From the NCBI RefSeq assembly GCF_029504745.1, contig NZ_JAQFIQ010000011.1:1-32000 (forward strand): a DNA stretch of 32,000 nucleotides, written 5' to 3'. Positions 1 through 22,155 of this stretch are shown here, piece by piece. The stretch is from Breznakia sp. PF5-3 (GTDB lineage: Bacteria > Bacillota_I > Bacilli_A > Erysipelotrichales > Erysipelotrichaceae). The notes beneath the pieces are model-generated. The model worked only from the letters and a program-made list of their open reading frames with translations. It searched no databases and was not told the origin of the DNA. Position numbers and translations under genes: made by a program. The stretch's first letter is position 1; every line of letters starts with the position of its first letter.

Positions 1-951
1 GTAGCAGAGGTAAAAGGGGATAAAGTAAAACTTGCAAGTTATAGTGATTATGGGTATAGTAAACATGGAGAAGGACACTATTACAATGGAGAGCACAAAG
101 AAGAAACAGGGCTAATATATTTAAGAGCTCGATATTATGATCCAAGTATAGGAAACTTCATACAGATAGATAACAACTATGCAGGAGAGAAGGAAGATGT
201 AGGAACACAGAATCGGTATAACTACACCTTATCTAACCCGTATAAGTATGTGGATAGGGATGGGAATAAGGCAAAGAAACCGAAAAAAACTGCAAAGAAG
301 CCAAATATTGCATCTTCTTTAGTAAAAGGAACTACCAATATAATAAATAAAGCAAATAATGCAGCAAAAGATGGTAAGAAAAAAGACCCTCCAAAGACGT
401 TTGATACAACCATCGGAACTCAATTTGATCCAAGTATATTGGGTACTGTTGGTGGATTAGTTATTGGTTGGATAAACCCATTTGCACTTATAATTACAGC
501 TGCAGTGATGGTAGCGTGTGTTGGGTTTGCAGGAAGTTTTCAAGATGCATCTAGGGCAACAGAATCCGTATATCCACCACATTCCCAAGATGGTGCTATA
601 CAAAATCGAGATCTTGGAAACTATAATATAATCAAGAATAAGTTGAAAGATATTGCAGGCAAGTTTGATACTTTTAAATGTGTAGAGGCTACTAAGGCGA
701 TGGTCAGTTATTTAAAGAATAATAAAATTAAGTATGAATTGATTACTATAGATTTTTCTGATAAAGGATTTATTTGGAGTGACATAAAGAAAATAAGTAT
801 TAGTGAAAATGGGCATCATGAGGGGATTGTCATTGATGAATATTCAGCATTTTGCAATGTACACCCATATGGATTGCCAGTAAAAAATTGGATTAGAGAT
901 TTTCATGGACAAGGAATAAAAACAGTTAATCCAGCAAAATACAAAGATTAG
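1..951 (+). CDS. RHS/YD-repeat polymorphic toxin, C-terminal end with variable toxin tip (5' part lies outside the window)
   Basis: Frame 1 is open from base 1 and runs into tracked ORF 250..951. Translation reads ...GLIYLRARYYDPSIGNFIQIDNNYAG...NRYNYTLSNPYKYVDRDG, the canonical end of an RHS core. It is followed by a Lys-rich linker, one hydrophobic helix (ILGTVGGLVIGWINPFALIITAAVMVACVGFAG) and a ~130-aa Cys/His-containing tip. Confidence 0.85.
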   Translation, partial: VAEVKGDKVKLASYSDYGYSKHGEGHYYNGEHKEETGLIYLRARYYDPSIGNFIQIDNNYAGEKEDVGTQNRYNYTLSNPYKYVDRDGNKAKKPKKTAKKPNIASSLVKGTTNIINKANNAAKDGKKKDPPKTFDTTIGTQFDPSILGTVGGLVIGWINPFALIITAAVMVACVGFAGSFQDASRATESVYPPHSQDGAIQNRDLGNYNIIKNKLKDIAGKFDTFKCVEATKAMVSYLKNNKIKYELITIDFSDKGFIWSDIKKISISENGHHEGIVIDEYSAFCNVHPYGLPVKNWIRDFHGQGIKTVNPAKYKD

Positions 952-964
952 AAAGGAAGATTTT

Positions 965-1669
965 ATGAACACAGAAAATAAAGAATTGATTAAACTACTA
1001 GAAATCAAAAGTAACTATTCTTCAGCATTTGATTATAATATTAAAAATATATCGGCATATCTCTCTGGTTATAATTATAGCCAAAGAGAAGCAGGATATA
1101 TTCCTGTTGATCCATTCTCAAAGAATCTATTTTTTAATAGATTGGATTCTTATATACGTAATTATTATCATATAAATATGACTGCAAGTATGTATAGTAT
1201 TATAAATTTTTTTACAGAGAACAATGAAGATGCATTCCATAATTTTTATGAAGCTATTGACATAGTTTTAAACCAGTCTTTAGAGTCATATGTACAATCT
1301 ATAAAAGATAATGCTGCATATGTGCTTGTGTTTCCTAATAAATCTGATAAAGTAGATTTAAATAGATTAGTAGATTTATTACAAAAGATAAAAGAAAGAC
1401 CAGGTATGTATTTAGGTGAAAAATCACTTACAAAATTGAGTTGGTTTTTGACAGGGTATCTTGTTAGTGAAGCAGAAGTTTATGAGAATATGAAACCTAA
1501 CTATATAGTTGGTTCTTTTGAACAATATCTAAATAAAGAATATGGATATTGTAATAAGAAGTGGAATAAAATATTAGATTTTCATCAAATAACAGAGGCA
1601 AATAAATTTGATACATTTTTCAATGAATTATCGAAATATAAAGAATTGTTAAAAAAATCAGCTAAATAA
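965..1669 (+). CDS. putative cognate immunity protein of the RHS toxin tip (family not recognised)
   Basis: 234-aa ORF starting 14 nt after the toxin stop, with RBS AAAGGAAG upstream of the ATG. No signal peptide or TM segment. Toxin-then-immunity order is typical of RHS loci; the function is inferred from position only. Confidence 0.6.
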   Translation: MNTENKELIKLLEIKSNYSSAFDYNIKNISAYLSGYNYSQREAGYIPVDPFSKNLFFNRLDSYIRNYYHINMTASMYSIINFFTENNEDAFHNFYEAIDIVLNQSLESYVQSIKDNAAYVLVFPNKSDKVDLNRLVDLLQKIKERPGMYLGEKSLTKLSWFLTGYLVSEAEVYENMKPNYIVGSFEQYLNKEYGYCNKKWNKILDFHQITEANKFDTFFNELSKYKELLKKSAK

Positions 1670-1794
1670 TTAAACTGAAATTTATGTAGATAGAATTATA
1701 AAGTGTCTATTTTTGAAAATACAAACTTAGGCACTTTTCTTAAATTGAAATTTCAATCATAAGACGTTTTGCTAAATAAAATTCTATCTCATAA

Positions 1795-2184
1795 AGAAGT
1801 GTAGTATCTATTTATGGATATGACAACAATGGAAACGTAATCAAAAAGGATACAACGAAGAACGGAAAAGCAATTCATACAACAAGTAAGAGTTGTGATG
1901 CCAATAACAACCTCGTAAAAGAATATGGAAGTAATGAAGTGTATACGTATGATGAGAATGACCAACTGATACAACTACAAAAGGGAGCATATGTGTATGA
2001 TTACACATATGATGCACAGGGAGAGCGAGTAAAACAAATAAAGAGTGATATTAGAGAGTGTCCAATGACATTATGGTATGACTATACACTATCATTAGAA
2101 TTTGATGATGTGAGTGAAAAAGAAGTAGAAGATAGCTTTGATATCTTAAGAGATCAAGTAAGAAAGAAAAAAGCGAAGAGATAG
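1795..2184 (+). pseudogene. orphan RHS YD-repeat fragment without a start codon
   Basis: The frame is open from the stop at 1792-1794. It reads RSVVSIYGYDNNGNVIKKDTTKNGKAIH...NNNLVKEYGSNEVYTYDENDQLIQLQKGAYVYDYTYDAQGERV, several YD repeats. There is no RBS or ATG before the repeats, and it ends in three consecutive stop codons (tag tag taa). Confidence 0.6.
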
Positions 2185-2191
2185 TAGTAAA

Positions 2192-2452
2192 AAAAATGTA
2201 TAAAAAATATGATTTTTACTATTTTGCATAAAAAAACAATTTACTTTATACTTTAAACCATAATCAAGCAGACACATCTGTAAAGAAGATAATAGAATGA
2301 ATAAAATAAAAATAGCCTATACTGGACTTGATTGACCAGTTGTAGGCTGCTTTTAATATATTAAATCGTAATTCGAACGGACTTCGGCAGACGAAAACAG
2401 CGCTCTGGGGGAAGAGTGCTTAGGCTCAGCAATTTCTAATTAATGATTGTCT
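2192..2452. repeat. left copy of long inverted repeat (core 2241..2446)
   Basis: 2241..2446 is the reverse complement of 4755..4960 with no indels (paired coordinates sum to 7201); I count 7 mismatches in 206 nt. Weaker similarity with indels extends out to about 2192 and in to about 2452. Confidence 0.9.
2300..2348 (-). terminator. intrinsic terminator of the minus-strand cassette operon (lies inside the left repeat)
   Basis: On the minus strand: stem AGCCTAcaACTGG, loop tcaatcaagt, stem CCAGTaTAGGCT, then ATTTTTATTTTATT. It lies about 90 nt downstream of the stop of the 2440..2916 gene. The mirrored copy is at 4853..4901 on the plus strand. Confidence 0.6.
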
Positions 2453-2916
2453 AACTCTAAAAAACCATGCCAGCTTAATATAACGAAAAGAAAACCAATA
2501 ATCATATACATGATTGTAAGAATCAATAGAAATACAAAATATATCGAGAATAAAAATAGTAGGTATTGTACCGATATTAAAAAGACTTGTATCAATAAAA
2601 AACTGTAATAAGTATTAATCAAACTAGTGCCTTCGGTAATAAATATTCCCTTTGTTTTTCTCTGAACGCTTAACTTTTTTAGCATTTTCTTAAAATCTAT
2701 ATTTTCCATGCCAAAAAGAAAAAAAGTAGATAAAATACTAATAGCATTTAAAATTTCTAAATAATTATCAGTAATGTTTTTTATAATAGCATCATTTTTA
2801 ATTAAGAAAAAAATAACAAAAATAAGAATACTGATTATCCACGGAATAAAATGAATGCTTTTATAAGATTCTGTAAATATTTGTCTTATTTTCTTTAGTG
2901 TGCTAAAGACCAGCAT
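2440..2916 (-). CDS. small multi-pass membrane protein (about 4 TM helices), third gene of cassette
   Basis: 158 aa with hydrophobic stretches FIPWIISILIFVIFFLI, ILNAISILSTFFLFG, YYSFLLIQVFLISVQYLLFLFSIYFVFLLILTIMYMIIGFLFVILSW. The RBS AGGAGG overlaps the TAG stop of the upstream gene, which suggests translational coupling. Confidence 0.8.
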   Translation of the reverse strand: MLVFSTLKKIRQIFTESYKSIHFIPWIISILIFVIFFLIKNDAIIKNITDNYLEILNAISILSTFFLFGMENIDFKKMLKKLSVQRKTKGIFITEGTSLINTYYSFLLIQVFLISVQYLLFLFSIYFVFLLILTIMYMIIGFLFVILSWHGFLELDNH

Positions 2917-2926
2917 AATAAACCTC

Positions 2927-3694
2927 CTAAATATTCTTCTTTAATTCCATTACCAAATGAACTAAAGATAATTCTTTTCTAGTTGTATAATCTTTATAAG
3001 AATCAGCAGAAAAAATTTCGATTTTTTTAGCAAAAAAACCATCTTGATAAGCGATAGCTTTGCCATTCTTATCGATACCATCAAATGAATATTTAACTAA
3101 TGGATTATCCCTTGTGGATAGGAGGAAGGATTCTAAATCTTTATGTCTTCCAAATTTCTTTTCTCGAAAGTAATAGACGTGTTCCTCTTTATCTCGAACT
3201 AACTCAGAAAATATCTCTTGAACCTTAATAGGCAATGGTTCTTCTTCTCTTTTTTCAAATAATTGTATTTGATTTTTATTAGTACCTTTATATTTAGTTA
3301 CCCTTAATTTTGTGACTTCCATAAAATCATCAACGGAAACTAGACTTTTTATCATTTTATCTTTAATATTAAAATAATACTTTAGTATTATTGCAATATT
3401 TTTCTTTGAACCTGTATAAAAACCATCACATTTTATATAATCTAATATAAAAAAGTCACAAATATATGCACTTTTTGCGCCTATTTTTTCCTCAATACCC
3501 ACAATATCATCATTTATAGGAACTCCATATTTTACTACTGCATCATCAAGTCTTGTTATTCTAAAAACAAAAAATTGATTATCATAATCATAGATTTCAA
3601 CAACTTGAAAATCTCCAAAGTCATTCTTTACTAAATCCCTTACTTGTACTAGCTCATTATTATTAGAATCTATATATAGACATTTTAATTCCAT
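2927..3694 (-). CDS. hypothetical cytosolic protein, 255 aa, no family recognised; second gene of cassette
   Basis: I chose the ATG at 3694 (MELKCLYIDS...) over the tracked 3709 because GGGAGG sits 6-8 nt upstream of it. No TM segment and no catalytic motif I can name. Confidence 0.75.
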   Translation of the reverse strand: MELKCLYIDSNNNELVQVRDLVKNDFGDFQVVEIYDYDNQFFVFRITRLDDAVVKYGVPINDDIVGIEEKIGAKSAYICDFFILDYIKCDGFYTGSKKNIAIILKYYFNIKDKMIKSLVSVDDFMEVTKLRVTKYKGTNKNQIQLFEKREEEPLPIKVQEIFSELVRDKEEHVYYFREKKFGRHKDLESFLLSTRDNPLVKYSFDGIDKNGKAIAYQDGFFAKKIEIFSADSYKDYTTRKELSLVHLVMELKKNI

Positions 3695-3836
3695 TTCGCT
3701 TCCTCCCAATGATTATATATAATATATCATAATATTGAAGATAAGAGCTAAAATAAGTTTAACATTACAAACTTACATCATTTATGTTAATATACTAAAT
3801 TATAGTGAAAATATCTTATAATAGACTAATTTTAAG

Positions 3837-4715
3837 TCACCAGTACATTTGATATTTATAGTTAGGCATATATAGCTTATCTCCCTTTTTTAGATTACAA
3901 TTATCGCATAATATTTGGAAATTAGTTGCATCATTTGTTCCCCCTTTTTCTAATGGAATAATGTGCTCTAAATGCAATTCTTTTGATTTAGTAATAGTTA
4001 ATAACCCTGATAATTCTTTTCCACAATGTTGGCATTTTCCGTTATCTCTATAAAGAACACCTTTCTGCAGCCATTTTGATATATATTTTAATCTTTTAAT
4101 ATGCTTATAATTATTAAAACAATCACTGCCTAAATAGTTACTATTTACATATTCAGCTAAATAACTGTTAAATTTAAATAAAAAGTTTTTATTATTAAAC
4201 AATAAATAAAAAACTGAATCTACAATATCCAATTCTATTTTGTCAAAAAATACTAAAATGTCATCAATTAACCATTTTATAAAGCAACGATAATTTTTTT
4301 CATTGCTATAATCTGTAAGCTTGTATTCATTGTCTAGAACCAGAATCTTTTGAATATAATCGTTACTATAAAACACTCCATATTCATCAAGAATGCTTAC
4401 AATACTTGAAATGTGCTCTATCAATATTTTAGCATCTAAGTCATCACAAAGCTCATCTATTAAATAGTATTTTTCATTCATTAAATAAAAATATAAATAT
4501 TGCTCACAAAACGAATGTAGTAATGTATACTTTAATGGCTTTATAGCAACATTATCTATCTCAAATGTTTTTTTAATTATATCTTTAGAATTTAAACTAT
4601 GAATGTAACCTAGCATATCAATTTCTTCAGAAATATTGCTACTATTGAAGCAGTCAATAATATTAGAAGCTAAGCGATAATTAAATTTCATTTGAAGTAC
4701 TTTGAAATTATCCAT
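3837..4715 (-). CDS. HNH endonuclease domain protein with unrecognised ~220-aa N-terminal domain; first gene of cassette
   Basis: The C-terminus reads CQHCGKEL...LHLEHIIPLEKGGTNDATNFQILCDNCNLKKGDK, i.e. CxxC ... H ... N ... CxxC, a zinc-ribbon HNH. RBS AGAGG lies 8 nt before the ATG at 4715. Confidence 0.85.
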   Translation of the reverse strand: MDNFKVLQMKFNYRLASNIIDCFNSSNISEEIDMLGYIHSLNSKDIIKKTFEIDNVAIKPLKYTLLHSFCEQYLYFYLMNEKYYLIDELCDDLDAKILIEHISSIVSILDEYGVFYSNDYIQKILVLDNEYKLTDYSNEKNYRCFIKWLIDDILVFFDKIELDIVDSVFYLLFNNKNFLFKFNSYLAEYVNSNYLGSDCFNNYKHIKRLKYISKWLQKGVLYRDNGKCQHCGKELSGLLTITKSKELHLEHIIPLEKGGTNDATNFQILCDNCNLKKGDKLYMPNYKYQMYW

Positions 4716-4740
4716 TATTAAAGTCCTCTTTTTTATACTA

Positions 4741-4746
4741 ATTATA
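4741..4746 (-). promoter_or_regulatory. candidate -10 box (TATAAT) for the HNH cassette
   Basis: Plus-strand attata equals minus-strand TATAAT, about 25 nt upstream of the ATG and just inside the inner edge of the right repeat. I found no convincing -35. Confidence 0.35.
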
Positions 4747-4749
4747 CTA

Positions 4750-5012
4750 CAAAATCATCAATTAAAAATTGCTGAGCCTAAGCACTCTTCCCCCAGAGCG
4801 CTGTTTTCGTCTGCCGAAGTCCGTTCGAATTACGATTTAATATATTAAAAGCAGTCTACAACTGATTAATCAAGTCCAGTATAGGCTATTTTTATTTTAT
4901 TCATTCTATTATCTTCTTTATAGATGTGTCTGCTTGATTACGGTTTAAAGTATAAAGTAAATTTTTTTTGTAAAATAGTAAAGGTCATATTTTTTTTTAC
5001 ATTTTTAAACAT
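4750..5012. repeat. right copy of long inverted repeat (core 4755..4960)
   Basis: Reverse complement of 2241..2446 (see left copy). Its outer part overlaps the last ~25 codons of the ParB-like orphan ORF. Confidence 0.9.
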
Positions 5013-5387
5013 ATTGTTTAATAAGTTTTGTATTGTTCTTCCATAATTAATAATTTGATTTTCATGAATATATTTAATAGGTATTCTTTCATAACCTAAT
5101 TCTACAAATGCTTTATACCTGGGATGTCTATCCATAATTAGAGCTTGTCCATTGTGTACGCGTACTGGAATTGGATCAACGACATTTGGACCTTTGGTTT
5201 TAATACTTTCTTTTCTACCTTCTATTGTAGACCTATTAGCATGGCTATCTGGTTGTGTTTTATATAATTGTTTAGCATCATATGAAGTACCACTTATTTC
5301 TGTATTCCCTAACCCTTGTCTAAGAAACATTAATCCCAATATTGAAGTAAGAGTAACACCTCCAATTTCTGTTTTACAAACCTTATT
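4938..5387 (-). pseudogene. orphan polymorphic-toxin C-terminal module, ParB/sulfiredoxin-like nuclease fold (possibly degenerate)
   Basis: The stop-to-stop frame opens at 5387 directly after the upstream gene, with no ATG or RBS (the tracked start is a TTG). The segment DPIPVRVHNGQALIMDRHPRYKAFVELGYERIPIKYI resembles the ParB-type core, but DRHPR stands where DGHHR would be expected. Confidence 0.45.
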
Positions 5388-5832
5388 TCATTAATAAATT
5401 AAAACATTTCAACATATCTGATAAATTTTTTAATGATTCCTGTAAAAAGGTTTGATCAGTCTTAAACTTAAAAGAAAGGTTTAGTTGGTTTTCACTATAT
5501 TCTGAATAGTCTATTTCCACTTCTGCATGACCTTGCCCAATCATTTTAATGTTAATTTTCAAGTTGTCATCATATTCAGGGATATAGGAAGCTTCTCCAC
5601 ACAAGGTGTTATAAATTTGTTTTAGATTATCGTGAAAATTTTCAATTATTATTGTAGAAGAATAGAAATTGTTTTCACAGAATGTTAATCCGTTATATTT
5701 GATATAAAGTGCACCTCTAAGAGAAAATCCTCCATTCCAATTTTGAGATTCAGAGAAAATTTCATGTATAGTTAATTTTATATATCCTTTATTTCCTTTT
5801 AATTCAAAGGATTGTGGTTTTTCTAAAATCAT
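5383..5832 (-). CDS. hypothetical small cytosolic protein, immunity-like by context
   Basis: 149 aa, RBS GGGAGCG before the ATG at 5832, no TM segment. It sits immediately upstream of the orphan toxin tip, as orphan immunity genes do in rhs arrays. Confidence 0.6.
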   Translation of the reverse strand: MILEKPQSFELKGNKGYIKLTIHEIFSESQNWNGGFSLRGALYIKYNGLTFCENNFYSSTIIIENFHDNLKQIYNTLCGEASYIPEYDDNLKINIKMIGQGHAEVEIDYSEYSENQLNLSFKFKTDQTFLQESLKNLSDMLKCFNLLMK

Positions 5833-6004: not shown

Positions 6005-6508
6005 ATGTTTGAAATTAATGTGAAAAATTTAAGCTGGATTAGAGGAGCGCAAGATAATCCTAATGATCTATGTGCACATGGAACAGTGACAGCAATTATA
6101 GGCAATGAAACTTTTTCTTACAATGCAACAGTAAGTTCCACAGCATTATCTTTGTTAAGGACACTAAAAAACAATCATATAATTGGTAAAGAACATAATC
6201 AAATGCTGCCATGCTGTGGACATAGTTTTTTTCAAAATGAGGAGCAAACAAAGGCTGTAATTATTGGATGTAATAATGGAATAGACTGGAGTGTTCTTCA
6301 TGAAGATGAAGAAATAAAGATAGTAACTGAGTCAAATAAAGTTACATATGTAACTTTTAATGTTTATAAAGAAGTAGTTTTTAAGTTTGCGGATGAAGTG
6401 AAATCAATATATGATAATTCATCTGCTAAAATATTACCAAATGATACTTACCTTAAGGATGGGTACTTATTATTTTGGGAAGAGTGGAATGCGTTGCGGA
6501 ATTTATAG
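6005..6508 (+). CDS. hypothetical protein, immunity-like orphan
   Basis: 167 aa with a strong RBS (AGGAGGGG). Cytosolic, no recognisable catalytic motif; located in the toxin locus. Confidence 0.65.
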   Translation: MFEINVKNLSWIRGAQDNPNDLCAHGTVTAIIGNETFSYNATVSSTALSLLRTLKNNHIIGKEHNQMLPCCGHSFFQNEEQTKAVIIGCNNGIDWSVLHEDEEIKIVTESNKVTYVTFNVYKEVVFKFADEVKSIYDNSSAKILPNDTYLKDGYLLFWEEWNALRNL

Positions 6509-6528
6509 ATTTTAATAGGAGAAAAAGA

Positions 6529-7566
6529 ATGTTTAAAAATACAATTGATTTAGAAAAATTGAATATTTTTTATACTGCATTTCCAATGTCTTTAAAAAAT
6601 GATGTGGAAATAGTTTTGAAGAAAATATCTAAGACAGTAAAAAATCAAAAAAATATATATTTAGATAATTATATTCGATACAGATATCTTAATGAAGATA
6701 TTTATATTCCATATAGAATTTGTTTTAGTGAAATCCCAACAAAAAAAATAAAAAAACTAACATCAACGCAAAAGATGATATTGTTTTGCATTTACTCTAG
6801 ACATCATAATGGGTATGTTAGAGAAAAATATATTAATAATATATTAGATACAAATTTTTCAGATTGGTGCATTCCGTATATTTTAAAGATAATAGACGAA
6901 TATGTATATCCTATTATAGTTCAAATTAATGATAAATTAAATATTGAAAATGAAGAAAGAATCAAGAAAATATGTATGCAAAACACTAATGAAATGTGTT
7001 TAAGTTTTAATCGAATGATAAGCTATTGGAATGAATTTTATAGGGAACAATTTTCTAATATAAATGATTATGCAGGTTTCAAATTATTTTGTCGAATAGG
7101 CTACAACAAAACTATTGTTAATGAGCATTTTGAGCAATTGCATTATAGTAAACAAATTTTAGATAACGAAATTGAGCGATTAAAAATTGTTATTGTTGGT
7201 AGGGGATATATCGATATGATTACTCCCTATAGTGTAATAAAAGATTTTATAAATGTTTTAAATAATTTGAATATTCGGATTGATGGATTTACTTGGTGGT
7301 GTCATGCAAAAGATGAGCATAAAGCTTGTGGTTTTGGAGGACCACCAGATTATGATGGAAAAGGGTATTATTCGGAAATTCAAATGGGAAGTGTAATGGA
7401 ATTATGTAATGAATTTGATGTATTAAAATGTAACAATACATATTTAAATTTCTTTTTGAATGAATACCCTTATAGGAATGATTATAAAAAATGTTATGTT
7501 CCAGGATTTTGGATTGACATTCCTAATAGTTGGAAAAATATTACAGGTAACAAAAAAACACATTGA
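6529..7566 (+). CDS. hypothetical protein (345 aa), probably two immunity-type domains
   Basis: I prefer the ATG at 6529 (MFKNTIDLEK...), which is preceded by TAGGAG, over the tracked 6475 start that overlaps the previous gene. The C-terminal part is Cys/Trp/His-rich (WWCHAKDEHKACGFGGPPDYDGKGYY). Confidence 0.65.
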   Translation: MFKNTIDLEKLNIFYTAFPMSLKNDVEIVLKKISKTVKNQKNIYLDNYIRYRYLNEDIYIPYRICFSEIPTKKIKKLTSTQKMILFCIYSRHHNGYVREKYINNILDTNFSDWCIPYILKIIDEYVYPIIVQINDKLNIENEERIKKICMQNTNEMCLSFNRMISYWNEFYREQFSNINDYAGFKLFCRIGYNKTIVNEHFEQLHYSKQILDNEIERLKIVIVGRGYIDMITPYSVIKDFINVLNNLNIRIDGFTWWCHAKDEHKACGFGGPPDYDGKGYYSEIQMGSVMELCNEFDVLKCNNTYLNFFLNEYPYRNDYKKCYVPGFWIDIPNSWKNITGNKKTH

Positions 7567-20194: not shown

Positions 20195-21739
20195 TTATGC
20201 TTCCTCGCTTTCGATATTTTGGGGTACATGATTTAATCGTTTTTCAACAAAATTCAAAATCAATGTTGCAACCGAAGTTAAAAGTAAATAAATAATACTT
20301 GTGATAAAGAATGTTTCTGTAAATAACATCACACTTCCAGCTACTGATGAAGATTGGAAATATAATTCAATAAGACCAATTACATTCAACATACTACTAT
20401 CTTTGATATTTACGATTAATTGATTTCCAATTGAAGGGAAAGAGTTTTTAATCGCTTGCGGAAGAATGATATTAAACATCGTTTGTGTATTGTTCATTCC
20501 AATACTACGTGCTCCTTCACTTTGTCCACGATCCACTGCCTGAATACCAGAGCGGATAATCTCTGCCATATAAGCACCTGTATTGATGGAAATAATTACA
20601 ATTCCAGCAGTCAATGCATTCCAGTGGAGGATTGGTCTAAAGATAGAATATAAGAAGATTGCTTGTACCATCATAGGAGTTCCTCTAAAAATCCATACAT
20701 AAAGACTTACAAAACCATGGGCAATTCTTTTTAATCCTTTAACAAGGGTACTATCTTTGTCATCTACTTCTACTGCACGAACTCCACCAAGGATTAAACC
20801 AATGATAAGACCACATAAGGTACCAACAATGGATAACAATAAAGTAATTTGAATTCCATATAAGAATAGTGACCAGTTGTTTTCAAAAATCCATCCAACT
20901 TTACCAAAGAAGTTTGTTGGAACTCCTTCTTTTGGTTGTAGTTTTGTGGATAATTTCATCATTTCACTACGATCAGCTGCTGATATTTTATCTAAGGAAG
21001 CTTGGACATCGTTAAAGAACTTTGTACCTCGTGTACCATCTTTTAAACCAATGGAAACAGATGTATCCACATTGAATCCTTTTCCTTTAGCAAAGGTAGT
21101 AATGGCTAAATCATCGTTGGTTTCAAGAACTCCTTCAGCTACTGGCATTTCGGCTGTAATCCCATCTACTTCTTTGTTTTGTAACGCCAAAAGCATTTCT
21201 GGATACGTCGCTTTTGGAGTAGCATGATCAACGCCTTTAATCTGATCGATGATTTCATCATAAGTTGTATTTTTTTGTCCGATTACGGTTTTACCACTAA
21301 AATCTTGAATCGATGAAGCTTTTTCCTCAGCACTGTCTTTACGAACAATCATAACCATTTCAGATTCATAATATGGTGTTGTAAAGTCAATTCCATTTTC
21401 ACGCTCATCATTGGCTGTCATACCAGCGATGATGGCATCGATTTCACCAGATTCAAGCGCTGGTTGTAAACCATCCCATGATAATTTCTTAATCACCAGT
21501 TCACGATCTAAATCATCGGCAATCTTTTGGGAAATCATAACATCATACCCATCACAGTACCCAGCGCTACCAATCGCTACCGCACTCTCTGTTTCGGTGT
21601 TTGTCTGCCAGTTGAATGGTGCATAATTACATTCCATTCCAACCGTGAAAGTTTCTTGTTTCTTTTCTGCTGCTACAAGTTGTATGAATCCTGTAAAGAG
21701 AATCCCACAAACAAGTAAAACTTTTGTTAGCTTTTTCAT
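20195..21739 (-). CDS. fused substrate-binding domain + permease of a polar amino-acid ABC transporter (candidate lysine importer)
   Basis: Signal peptide [15 protein letters not shown], a ~270-aa type-3 SBP domain, then a permease with the coupling loop [35 protein letters not shown] at 21739 with GGAGG upstream. A lysine riboswitch precedes it. Confidence 0.85.
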
Positions 21740-21759
21740 TTCTATTCCTCCCAATCATT

Positions 21760-21964
21760 AAAAAACGTCAATAAGAACCCACTCTTATTGACGTTATCAA
21801 CCTCATTTAAGATAGTGCTCCTACAAAATGTAGACAGTGCTATAGATATTCTCTATAGTCCCACAACTCATATATGCCTATGTGAATCATTCGGCAGATA
21901 ACTCCTAAGTAATGTGTCTAACGAATGCCTTCTTCACATCACGTCTTAGTATCTGCGCCTCTAT
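21760..21964 (-). promoter_or_regulatory. lysine riboswitch (L-box) with terminator expression platform
   Basis: The minus-strand leader reads AGAGGCGCAG...GGAGTTATCTGCCGAATG...GTTGTGGGACT...AGCACTGTCTAC...GGAGCACTATC. These match the conserved L-box blocks (GAGGCGC, UGCCGAA, UGGGA, CACUGUC, GGAGxxCUAUC). The hairpin AACGTCAATAAGAgtgggTTCTTATTGACGTT plus TTTTT (21760-21796) follows, just before the RBS. Confidence 0.7.
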
Positions 21965-22155
21965 CGATATTTAATTGTTAGGTTTATTATAGCAGTTAAT
22001 GAAAATAGTGCAAGGATTTCAATGGTAATGAGAAAACTTAGATTTTATGAATATGTCTTTGTATTTTTAGTATCTGAGAAATTGTGTACATATTCATGGA
22101 AAAAAATGATGATAAATGATATTATAATAACGTTTATAAAACGAAGGAGATAACA

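Follow-up and report, generated by a model that had tools for sequence, protein, structure and literature searches.

The three-gene cassette

The DNA analysed here is a 32,000-nt window from Breznakia sp. PF5-3 (Erysipelotrichaceae), and all positions given below refer to this whole stretch. Near its left end the minus strand holds three co-oriented open reading frames (ORFs), called here the HNH gene, gene 2 and gene 3, which lie between the arms of a long inverted repeat (Table 1). An earlier inspection of the bare sequence, referred to below as the original prediction, had put these genes forward as a candidate for one undescribed defence or toxin system, possibly composed of a nuclease, a sensor and a small membrane effector. 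All three ORFs were found where they had been placed. The accessory character of the locus was also borne out: the cassette is located inside an RHS polymorphic-toxin/immunity island, and the two repeat arms, 225 nt each, are 95% complementary and separated by 2294 nt. The GC content of the cassette is 24.7% as compared to 32% in the remainder of the window.

The HNH protein and the gene 2 protein are 100% identical to the NCBI proteins M2475_000796 and M2475_000795, respectively (contig JAQFIS010000009.1). For gene 2 the start was set at the ATG at 3694, which is preceded by a GGGAGG ribosome binding site (RBS); the resulting 255-aa form is also the NCBI protein call, whereas the mechanical ORF starting from an upstream TTG would be 260 aa. 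Gene 3 codes for a small protein with approximately four transmembrane (TM) helices. Its AGGAGG sequence overlaps the TAG stop codon of gene 2 and its ATG is 10 nt past that stop, an arrangement by which gene 3 is predicted to be translationally coupled to gene 2. Between the stop codon of the HNH gene and the start of gene 2, in contrast, there is a gap of 142 nt. A promoter scan of the cassette found 40 sites as compared to 32 ± 6 in shuffled sequences. Because this is not an enrichment, no promoter is claimed for the window.

Table 1. Genes of the cassette, repeat arms and neighbouring features of the window
Feature	Position	Strand	Description
HNH gene	3837-4715	-	292 aa; ORF and Pfam HNH match
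Gene 2	2927-3694	-	255 aa; ORF and RBS; soluble
Gene 3	2440-2916	-	158 aa; ~4 TM helices; ORF and hydropathy
Left repeat arm	2229-2453		Bidirectional terminator-like hairpin and 47% GC core
Right repeat arm	4748-4972		Overlaps 3' end of the ParB_N-like ORF; upstream of the HNH gene
RHS/YD-repeat protein, 3' end only	1-951	+	Tox-PL-2 papain-fold toxin tip, E 3.8e-15
234-aa ORF	965-1669	+	No known family; directly after the Tox-PL-2 RHS gene
Orphan RHS/YD-repeat fragment	~1795-2184	+	No proper start codon; short unique tail; just outside the left repeat arm
ParB_N-like ORF	4938-5339	-	Sub-threshold ParB_N match, E 1e-4, 22.7 bits against a 26.3-bit cut-off; after the WapI-family gene
WapI-family immunity gene	5383-5832	-	E 2.2e-13

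Distribution of the three genes

A tblastn matrix over all loci separated the loci with an HNH homologue cleanly from those with homologues of genes 2 and 3; both were present only in the Breznakia locus. None of the five other HNH-family contexts that were examined (L001, L003, L004-L007, L022 and L023/L024) contained a homologue of gene 2 or of gene 3, and a member of the HNH family was absent from all eight other loci of the gene 2-gene 3 pair (L008, L010, L013, L014-16, L017, L019, L025 and L026/27). As no other genome was found to combine the HNH family with the pair, the cassette is best described as two modules and not as a three-gene system. This division agrees with the spacing, which is wide between the HNH gene and gene 2 whereas genes 2 and 3 are coupled. 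In this respect the original prediction failed: a single nuclease/sensor/membrane-effector system did not stand the synteny check across relatives.

Genes 2 and 3, on the other hand, were never found apart. Their homologues were adjacent in 9/9 independent loci, this one included, with gaps ranging from -8 to +34 nt, and in all eight other loci the gene 3 homologue directly followed the gene 2 homologue. In each of these eight loci the membrane partner was more conserved than the soluble one (gene 3, 29-48% identity; gene 2, 19-34%). The faster divergence of the soluble partner fits a sensor under diversifying pressure, although it does not prove it.

The majority of the pair copies were found in phages or prophages. 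In four of them (L013, L014-16, L019 and L026) the pair was located between early/regulatory genes and terminase, the upstream genes coding for SSB, methyltransferases, YjcQ and an antiterminator-Q-like protein. In two other loci (L008 and L017) the pair adjoined recombinases or an integrase. Terminator-like hairpins were detected on both sides of the pair in L014, where promoter-like sites were also present in the stretch that separates the upstream hairpin from the start codon, and after gene 3 in L026. This layout suggests an independently transcribed accessory unit. No tblastn match to either gene 2 or gene 3 was obtained in all 50,697 deposited phage genomes, and at this sensitivity the absence indicates that the pair is not a core phage function. 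The best explanation of the distribution is that the pair normally travels as accessory genes in temperate phages of low-GC Bacillota.

Two neighbours of the pair were also recorded. A gene for a DUF2971 protein (L019 1612-2484) is directly upstream of the pair in that phage, and a SieB-family superinfection-exclusion gene lies ~3 kb upstream of the pair in L008. Such sites seem to be where genes of the accessory or exclusion kind accumulate.

Predicted structure of the gene 2 protein

Neither gene 2 nor gene 3 gave a significant match in Pfam, NCBIfam, PHROGs or PADLOC, and hydropathy analysis detected no hydrophobic segment in the gene 2 protein, as anticipated from the first description of it as a soluble protein lacking a recognisable motif. 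Gene 2 is nearly an orphan: a word-index search retrieved only the sequence itself, and exhaustive phmmer searching was required to collect 14 remote relatives of ~250 aa with 19-35% identity. A weak similarity to the NADAR domain (16.6 bits against a cut-off of 35.1 bits) was seen in 1/13 members and was dismissed as noise.

A model of the protein was generated by AlphaFold2 (AF2) from a 13-sequence alignment (predicted local distance difference test, pLDDT, 78.1; predicted template modelling score, pTM, 0.74). When the PDB was searched with this model using Foldseek, the best match was RexA of phage lambda (8twq_B, E 3.2e-3, prob 0.96), closely followed by RdgC of Escherichia coli (2owl_A, E 3.5e-3, prob 0.97); the next match was unrelated and had an E value of 0.23. 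Among the predicted viral structures of BFVD two uncharacterised siphovirus proteins ranked first (E 1.5e-7 and 2.8e-7), and phage proteins annotated as RdgC came after them, the RdgC-like matches having a prob of 0.98-1.0.

In the study that describes its structure, RexA unexpectedly turned out to be structurally homologous to RdgC (PMC11077077). The globular beta-sheet domain of RexA is split into two parts (aa 1-139 and 248-279), between which a dimerisation domain of four strands (143-234) is inserted (PMC11077077). The order of elements in the gene 2 model fits this layout: it consists of a beta-sheet N-domain (aa 2-135), a hinge predicted with low confidence, four strands and helices (169-226) and a C-terminal helix. 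The two-domain fold of RexA was thus found in the model, with a match over the whole chain at TM-scores (template modelling scores, as distinct from TM helices) of 0.29-0.44. From the modelled fold, the gene 2 product is a RexA/RdgC-fold protein, and within a RexAB-type pair it is a candidate for the component that acts as sensor or binds DNA.

The small membrane protein encoded by gene 3

The hydropathy profile of the gene 3 protein revealed hydrophobic segments at approximately 20-45 and 52-70 and a double-length segment at 99-155, which together account for ~4 TM helices. Both the topology and the position of the ribosome binding site over the gene 2 stop codon had been correctly recognised from the sequence. 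Members of the family have a length of 152-158 aa, and all six that were profiled showed the same 2 + 2 TM hydropathy pattern; lambda RexB is comparable. Conserved motifs in the family are NYLxxLNxIxxLSTF, QYxL and a C-terminal WHG. An alignment search with gene 3 gave no match in genome contigs, and the metagenome and viral collections added only a single phage locus. By its size, predicted four-TM topology and position, gene 3 is a candidate effector of RexB-like type.

One gene 3 homologue (L017 2861-3331) matched weakly the PADLOC profile of ZorA (MotA/ExbB/TolQ) between aa 21 and 73 (E 2e-5). A relation of gene 3 to ZorA was not accepted, as the match was confined to this single member and was not reproduced in others. 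In a Klebsiella phage record (L028 1556-1984) RexB is labelled 'ExbB (RexB)'. The ZorA match of the one member and this label may hint at a distant relation to proton-channel stators.

The HNH nuclease

The description of the 292-aa protein as carrying a complete zinc-ribbon HNH domain at its C-terminus was confirmed: the motif CQHC...HLEH...N...CDNCN is present, and aa 228-281 matched Pfam HNH_5 (E 2e-11) and HNH (E 3.7e-11). The protein belongs to a rare family of ~294-aa proteins, for which 37 homologues were found, ~30 of them full length (284-304 aa), with 27-54% identity. The zinc ligands and catalytic residues C228, C231, H251, N265, C270, C273 and N274 are invariant in the family. In the AF2 model (pLDDT 89.2) an all-helical N-domain (aa ~9-187) is followed by the zinc-ribbon HNH domain (aa ~214-281). 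Only the latter found matches in Foldseek (EcoKMcrA 6ghc, Cap5 and the HNH domain of Cas9), all with E > 0.01. For the N-domain there was no fold match in the PDB and no sequence match, so the statement that it matches nothing recognisable held in both fold and profile searches; the profile searches also gave no RHS, LXG or WXG region. Likewise, the REase_II, mREase_IV and weak PtuB profiles of PADLOC matched the HNH region only, and in the deposited phage genomes tblastn detected the HNH domain but no copy of the N-domain.

The genes downstream of the HNH gene differ across all six contexts of the family, this locus included, and none is conserved. In L001 the gene is followed by that of a 375-aa unknown protein and lies near an integrase. 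In L003 it comes after four serine recombinase genes and is followed by an HTH-methyltransferase gene. It stands alone in L004-L007, among a resolvase, a TIR-SEFIR protein, bAvd and a type I restriction-modification system, and it is also alone in L022. In L023/L024 it precedes the gene of a 790-aa AAA_13 ATPase.

On the basis of the invariant catalytic residues, the restriction-type HNH matches and the varied neighbours of the defence or mobile kind, the protein is probably a stand-alone defence nuclease. The most likely type is a McrA-style (type IV restriction) nuclease encoded by one gene, in which the N-domain would recognise foreign DNA or gate the access to it. EcoKMcrA, the best fold match, likewise combines in one chain an accessory domain at the N-terminus with a zinc-ribbon HNH domain at the C-terminus. 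The match is, however, limited to the HNH domain, of which it covers ~75 residues (E > 0.01), and the helical N-domain is unrelated to that of McrA. Two points count against this assignment: because the N-domain matches nothing, the target and regulation of the nuclease are guesses, and there is no methyltransferase adjacent to the HNH gene in the window.

Two other types of HNH system were considered and rejected. Septu (PtuA plus the HNH protein PtuB) does not fit, as the PtuB matches were weak (E 2e-4 to 3e-3) and restricted to the HNH region and the cassette lacks a gene for an ATPase. An RNA-guided nuclease of the IscB/Cas9 type was discarded since the NCBIfam and PDB matches covered the HNH domain only and were far under the curated cut-offs, and neither a HEARO/omega-RNA nor any other Rfam family was found in 1700-5400.

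In the Oscillibacter locus (L023 3615-5987) the AAA_13 ATPase gene starts 72 nt downstream of the HNH homologue. This is a possible two-gene arrangement of that lineage only.

A proposed remote RexAB-type pair

The joint explanation that we prefer, with moderate confidence, is that two unrelated modules stand side by side in an RHS toxin island: a remote RexAB-type pair and a stand-alone HNH endonuclease. RexAB is the oldest known abortive-infection system. In the best reading of the modelled fold and the gene architecture, genes 2 and 3 would represent such an abortive-infection pair in Bacillota. They are not members of the RexA and RexB sequence families; the likeness is in fold for gene 2, in topology for gene 3, and in architecture. 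We therefore regard the pair as a sequence-divergent variant of the RexAB type, and the HNH family as a rare nuclease with a novel N-domain. A role in defence, as originally proposed, stays the best reading and is likely, but for two modules instead of one system. The remark that no named system matches was correct as far as the standard profile libraries are concerned, which name neither gene 2 nor gene 3, whereas a precedent for the pair does exist in RexA and RexB.

By analogy with lambda RexAB and the RexAB-type system of Pseudomonas putida, the RexA/RdgC-fold protein encoded by gene 2 would bind DNA as a dimer and sense an infection-specific signal, probably an intermediate of the phage made of DNA or of DNA and protein. 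It would then interact with its four-TM partner and switch it on. The gene 3 protein would compromise the membrane, leading to growth stop and an aborted infection, and the expected phenotype would be phage resistance.

The pair shares with lambda rexAB the organisation as a two-gene operon in which the gene of a soluble protein of ~250-280 aa comes first and is tightly coupled to that of a four-TM protein of ~145-160 aa. The gap between rexA and rexB is 15 nt, which is within the range found in the nine pair loci (-8 to +34 nt). RexB is a 16-kDa inner-membrane protein of 144 aa with four TM helices encoded directly after rexA, to be compared with the 158 aa and ~4 TM helices of the gene 3 product. 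The RexA/RdgC fold of the soluble protein, with 8TWQ as the best PDB match, and the carriage by temperate phages or prophages are further common features. The differences are that sequence similarity is not detectable for either protein, that the hosts are low-GC Bacillota and not enterobacteria, and that the pair is located upstream of terminase or by recombinases whereas the lambda genes are next to cI.

An assignment of this kind has been made before. The P. putida prophage genes PP_5643/PP_5644 were called RexAB-type from remote similarity to RexA and from a four-TM partner that has no detectable homology to RexB, and they were shown experimentally to provide phage defence by RexB-dependent membrane damage (PMC12894663). 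The composition (RexA-like DNA-binding protein plus four-TM partner in a prophage) and the line of reasoning, remote similarity plus architecture, are the same. The P. putida RexA was, however, found by HHpred at 98% probability and was validated, whereas the signal for the Breznakia pair is at the level of the fold only. Rex-like pairs of actinobacteriophages (Sbash gp30/31, CarolAnn, Butters; PMC11077077) are also exclusion pairs of a soluble and a four-TM protein in temperate phages of Gram-positive bacteria. Their position relative to the repressor varies; they belong to high-GC Actinobacteria, and they are likened here by description. In the literature searched no report of Rex-like pairs in Bacillota was found.

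Several observations weigh against a RexAB-type assignment. None of the 13 gene 2 relatives matched Pfam PF15969 (RexA) or the PADLOC RexA model (PDLC02339) at E <= 1, and none of the five gene 3 family members scanned matched Pfam PF15968 (RexB) or the PADLOC RexB model (PDLC02340). As a positive control, lambda RexA and RexB were recognised by the Pfam and PADLOC Rex models with E values from 1e-61 to 1e-110 (RexA 1e-97 and 9e-110). Comparison by hhalign with four-sequence profiles of RexA and RexB gave probabilities below 1% (gene 2 0.2%, gene 3 0.1%); the sole aligned stretch, which was not significant, paired aa 196-215 of gene 2 with 210-229 of RexA, equivalent positions in the second domain. 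The Foldseek TM-scores are low and the root-mean-square deviation is large, as is plausible for two hinged domains. The fold match does not separate a RexA-like from an RdgC-like protein, and for gene 3 the support comes from topology only. Finally, the phage copies are upstream of terminase and not beside a cI-like repressor as in lambda.

With regard to RdgC (2OWL) and the phage RdgC-like proteins, the fold match of gene 2 is as good as that to RexA. RdgC, a recombination-associated protein, is, on the other hand, a stand-alone DNA-binding protein of ~300 aa that forms a ring-shaped dimer and has no obligate membrane partner, whereas gene 2 always occurs with one, and 0/13 members of the gene 2 family matched any Pfam RdgC model.

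A more far-reaching version of the joint explanation is possible but clearly more doubtful. It holds that the pair is an unrecognised sequence-orphan branch of the exclusion systems composed of a RexA/RdgC-fold and a four-TM protein in temperate phages of gut and insect-gut Bacillota, or is Kiwa-like, that the HNH family represents a new type of defence nuclease encoded by one gene, the helical N-domain being a novel sensor of DNA or of a signal, and that in Breznakia both were captured jointly within the toxin island, in a repeat-bounded, possibly invertible cassette. In the Kiwa-like alternative the membrane protein would sense the phage attack and free a DNA-clamping partner. Kiwa itself (four-TM KwaA plus the DUF4868 protein KwaB) was rejected: genes 2 and 3 gave no PADLOC match to it at E <= 1, there was no Kiwa structure among the top 50 PDB folds, and in Kiwa the gene of the membrane protein comes first whereas in the pair it is that of the soluble protein.

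It is unlikely, in our estimate, that the function of genes 2 and 3 is in the phage's own cycle and not in defence. In such a role the RdgC-like DNA-binding protein, tethered or regulated by its membrane partner, could modulate recombination, replication or the lysogeny-lysis decision. Alternatively, the two genes could open the late operon as a lysis or holin-like module of an unusual kind. The equally good fold match to RdgC and the location of most copies between replication/late-regulator genes and terminase speak for such a function, as do the defence-independent roles of RexA, which biases the lambda switch (PMC11077077). The pair is, however, also found outside phages, in the RHS island described here and beside recombinases, and in L014 it has a terminator-promoter-terminator layout of its own, as expected for an accessory unit. 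Its absence from the deposited phage genomes at tblastn sensitivity likewise argues against a core function, and in the profile libraries gene 2 showed no similarity to endolysin families.

If genes 2 and 3 do represent a fold-level relative of RexAB in phages of Bacillota, RexAB-type systems would span far more bacterial groups than defence-finding tools report, since the curated sequence models find RexAB mainly in enterobacterial lambdoid phages. The pair would also provide a new sequence set for finding the essential features of the RexA-RexB interface and a testable candidate for defence in organisms with few characterised systems.

The inverted repeats

Each repeat arm has a core of 47% GC and a hairpin that would read as a terminator from either side. 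Recognisable similarity between the arms reaches outward to about 2192-2453 and 4748-5007. The inner cores (2360-2435 and 4766-4841), the right one of which sits just upstream of the HNH gene, contrast with the 25-30% GC of the region and have two predicted hairpins. A 52-nt core sequence is present in two copies in the window as compared to none expected in shuffled sequences. The ParB_N-like ORF takes its final ~20 codons from the right arm, and the left arm includes a copy of these codons that is frameshifted.

The fold z-score of the repeat core was -2.7, which is due to the terminator hairpin. There was no Rfam match to the repeats in a scan of window 1700-5400, and a structured RNA, CRISPR repeat or tRNA in the core was rejected as the search yielded a sub-threshold match to CRISPR-DR30 only (21 against 50 bits) and no tRNA. 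A 24-mer and a 20-mer of the core were not found in genome contigs, a collection that evidently does not include this Breznakia genome, or in viral contigs, and the left arm had no real blastn match in plasmids. The relatives of the HNH family and of the gene 2-gene 3 pair found elsewhere have no such flanking repeats. The inverted repeats are specific to this locus and are not a trait of either gene family. A transposon or insertion sequence with terminal inverted repeats was discarded as there is no transposase domain, no outer direct repeat and no further copy in the window or the collections.

The 2.8-kb repeat-bounded unit could nevertheless be mobile or invertible, either as a non-autonomous foldback-type insertion or as a segment that flips between the 225-nt arms. 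This is compatible with the two-module explanation, but we consider it improbable. It is suggested by the length and near perfection of the arms, by the low GC content of the cassette relative to its surroundings, and by the contribution of the right arm to the ParB_N-like ORF, which looks as if truncated by an insertion. Neither a transposase nor a recombinase is present within or beside the unit, the outer ends show no evident target-site duplication, the repeat has no other copy in the window or the collections searched, and repeats of this kind are missing from the relatives elsewhere. Furthermore, the left arm could equally be the relic of a second copy of the 3' region of the toxin gene. 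The repeats may be an insertion mark, a duplication-inversion of the 3' region of a toxin gene or the ends of an invertible segment.

It is the co-orientation and compactness of the three genes and their enclosure by the same repeats that would favour one new defence system, in which the HNH protein would be the nuclease effector, the gene 2 protein the sensor and the gene 3 protein the effector at the membrane. The existence of a 2390-bp Logan contig (window 2406-4795) that carries exactly these three genes might be taken to support it as well, but de Bruijn assembly breaks at repeats and this explains the limits of the contig. Given that the HNH gene and the pair did not co-occur in any of the five other HNH-family contexts or the eight other pair loci, that the 142-nt gap contrasts with the coupling of genes 2 and 3 and that no PADLOC system matched, a three-gene system is very improbable. 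A compact, repeat-bounded cluster in one genome is not sufficient for calling a multi-gene system. The present cluster fell into two modules once its synteny was followed in relatives.

The original prediction had offered as an alternative that the HNH protein is a stand-alone toxin, with gene 2 as immunity protein and gene 3 as export or lysis helper. A role as toxin, be it within a toxin-immunity pair, within a toxin-antitoxin pair or as an orphan polymorphic-toxin tip of the RHS locus, can hardly be upheld: the island is one of RHS toxin and immunity genes with other orphan toxin fragments, but the same lack of co-occurrence contradicts it, the full 292-aa architecture including the N-domain is kept in genomes that have neither an RHS context nor gene 2, the protein has no RHS, LXG, WXG or other trafficking region, and no neighbour is conserved over the six HNH-family contexts.

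The surroundings of the cassette

The RHS protein at the left end of the window has >1227 aa, the corresponding RHS locus being L011 12744-16429. The 234-aa ORF that follows its Tox-PL-2 tip presumably codes for its immunity protein. On the other side of the cassette, the ParB_N-like ORF is not followed by an immunity gene and is possibly an orphan toxin tip. Housekeeping genes begin ~7.6 kb into the window. Between them and the toxin island there are two overlapping ORFs of 167 aa (6005-6508, plus strand) and 363 aa (6475-7566, plus strand), which had no family match and may belong to the island. Farther downstream, a lysine riboswitch (Rfam RF00168, 74.7 bits) was detected at 21805-21971 on the minus strand, upstream of a 519-aa ORF (20195-21754).

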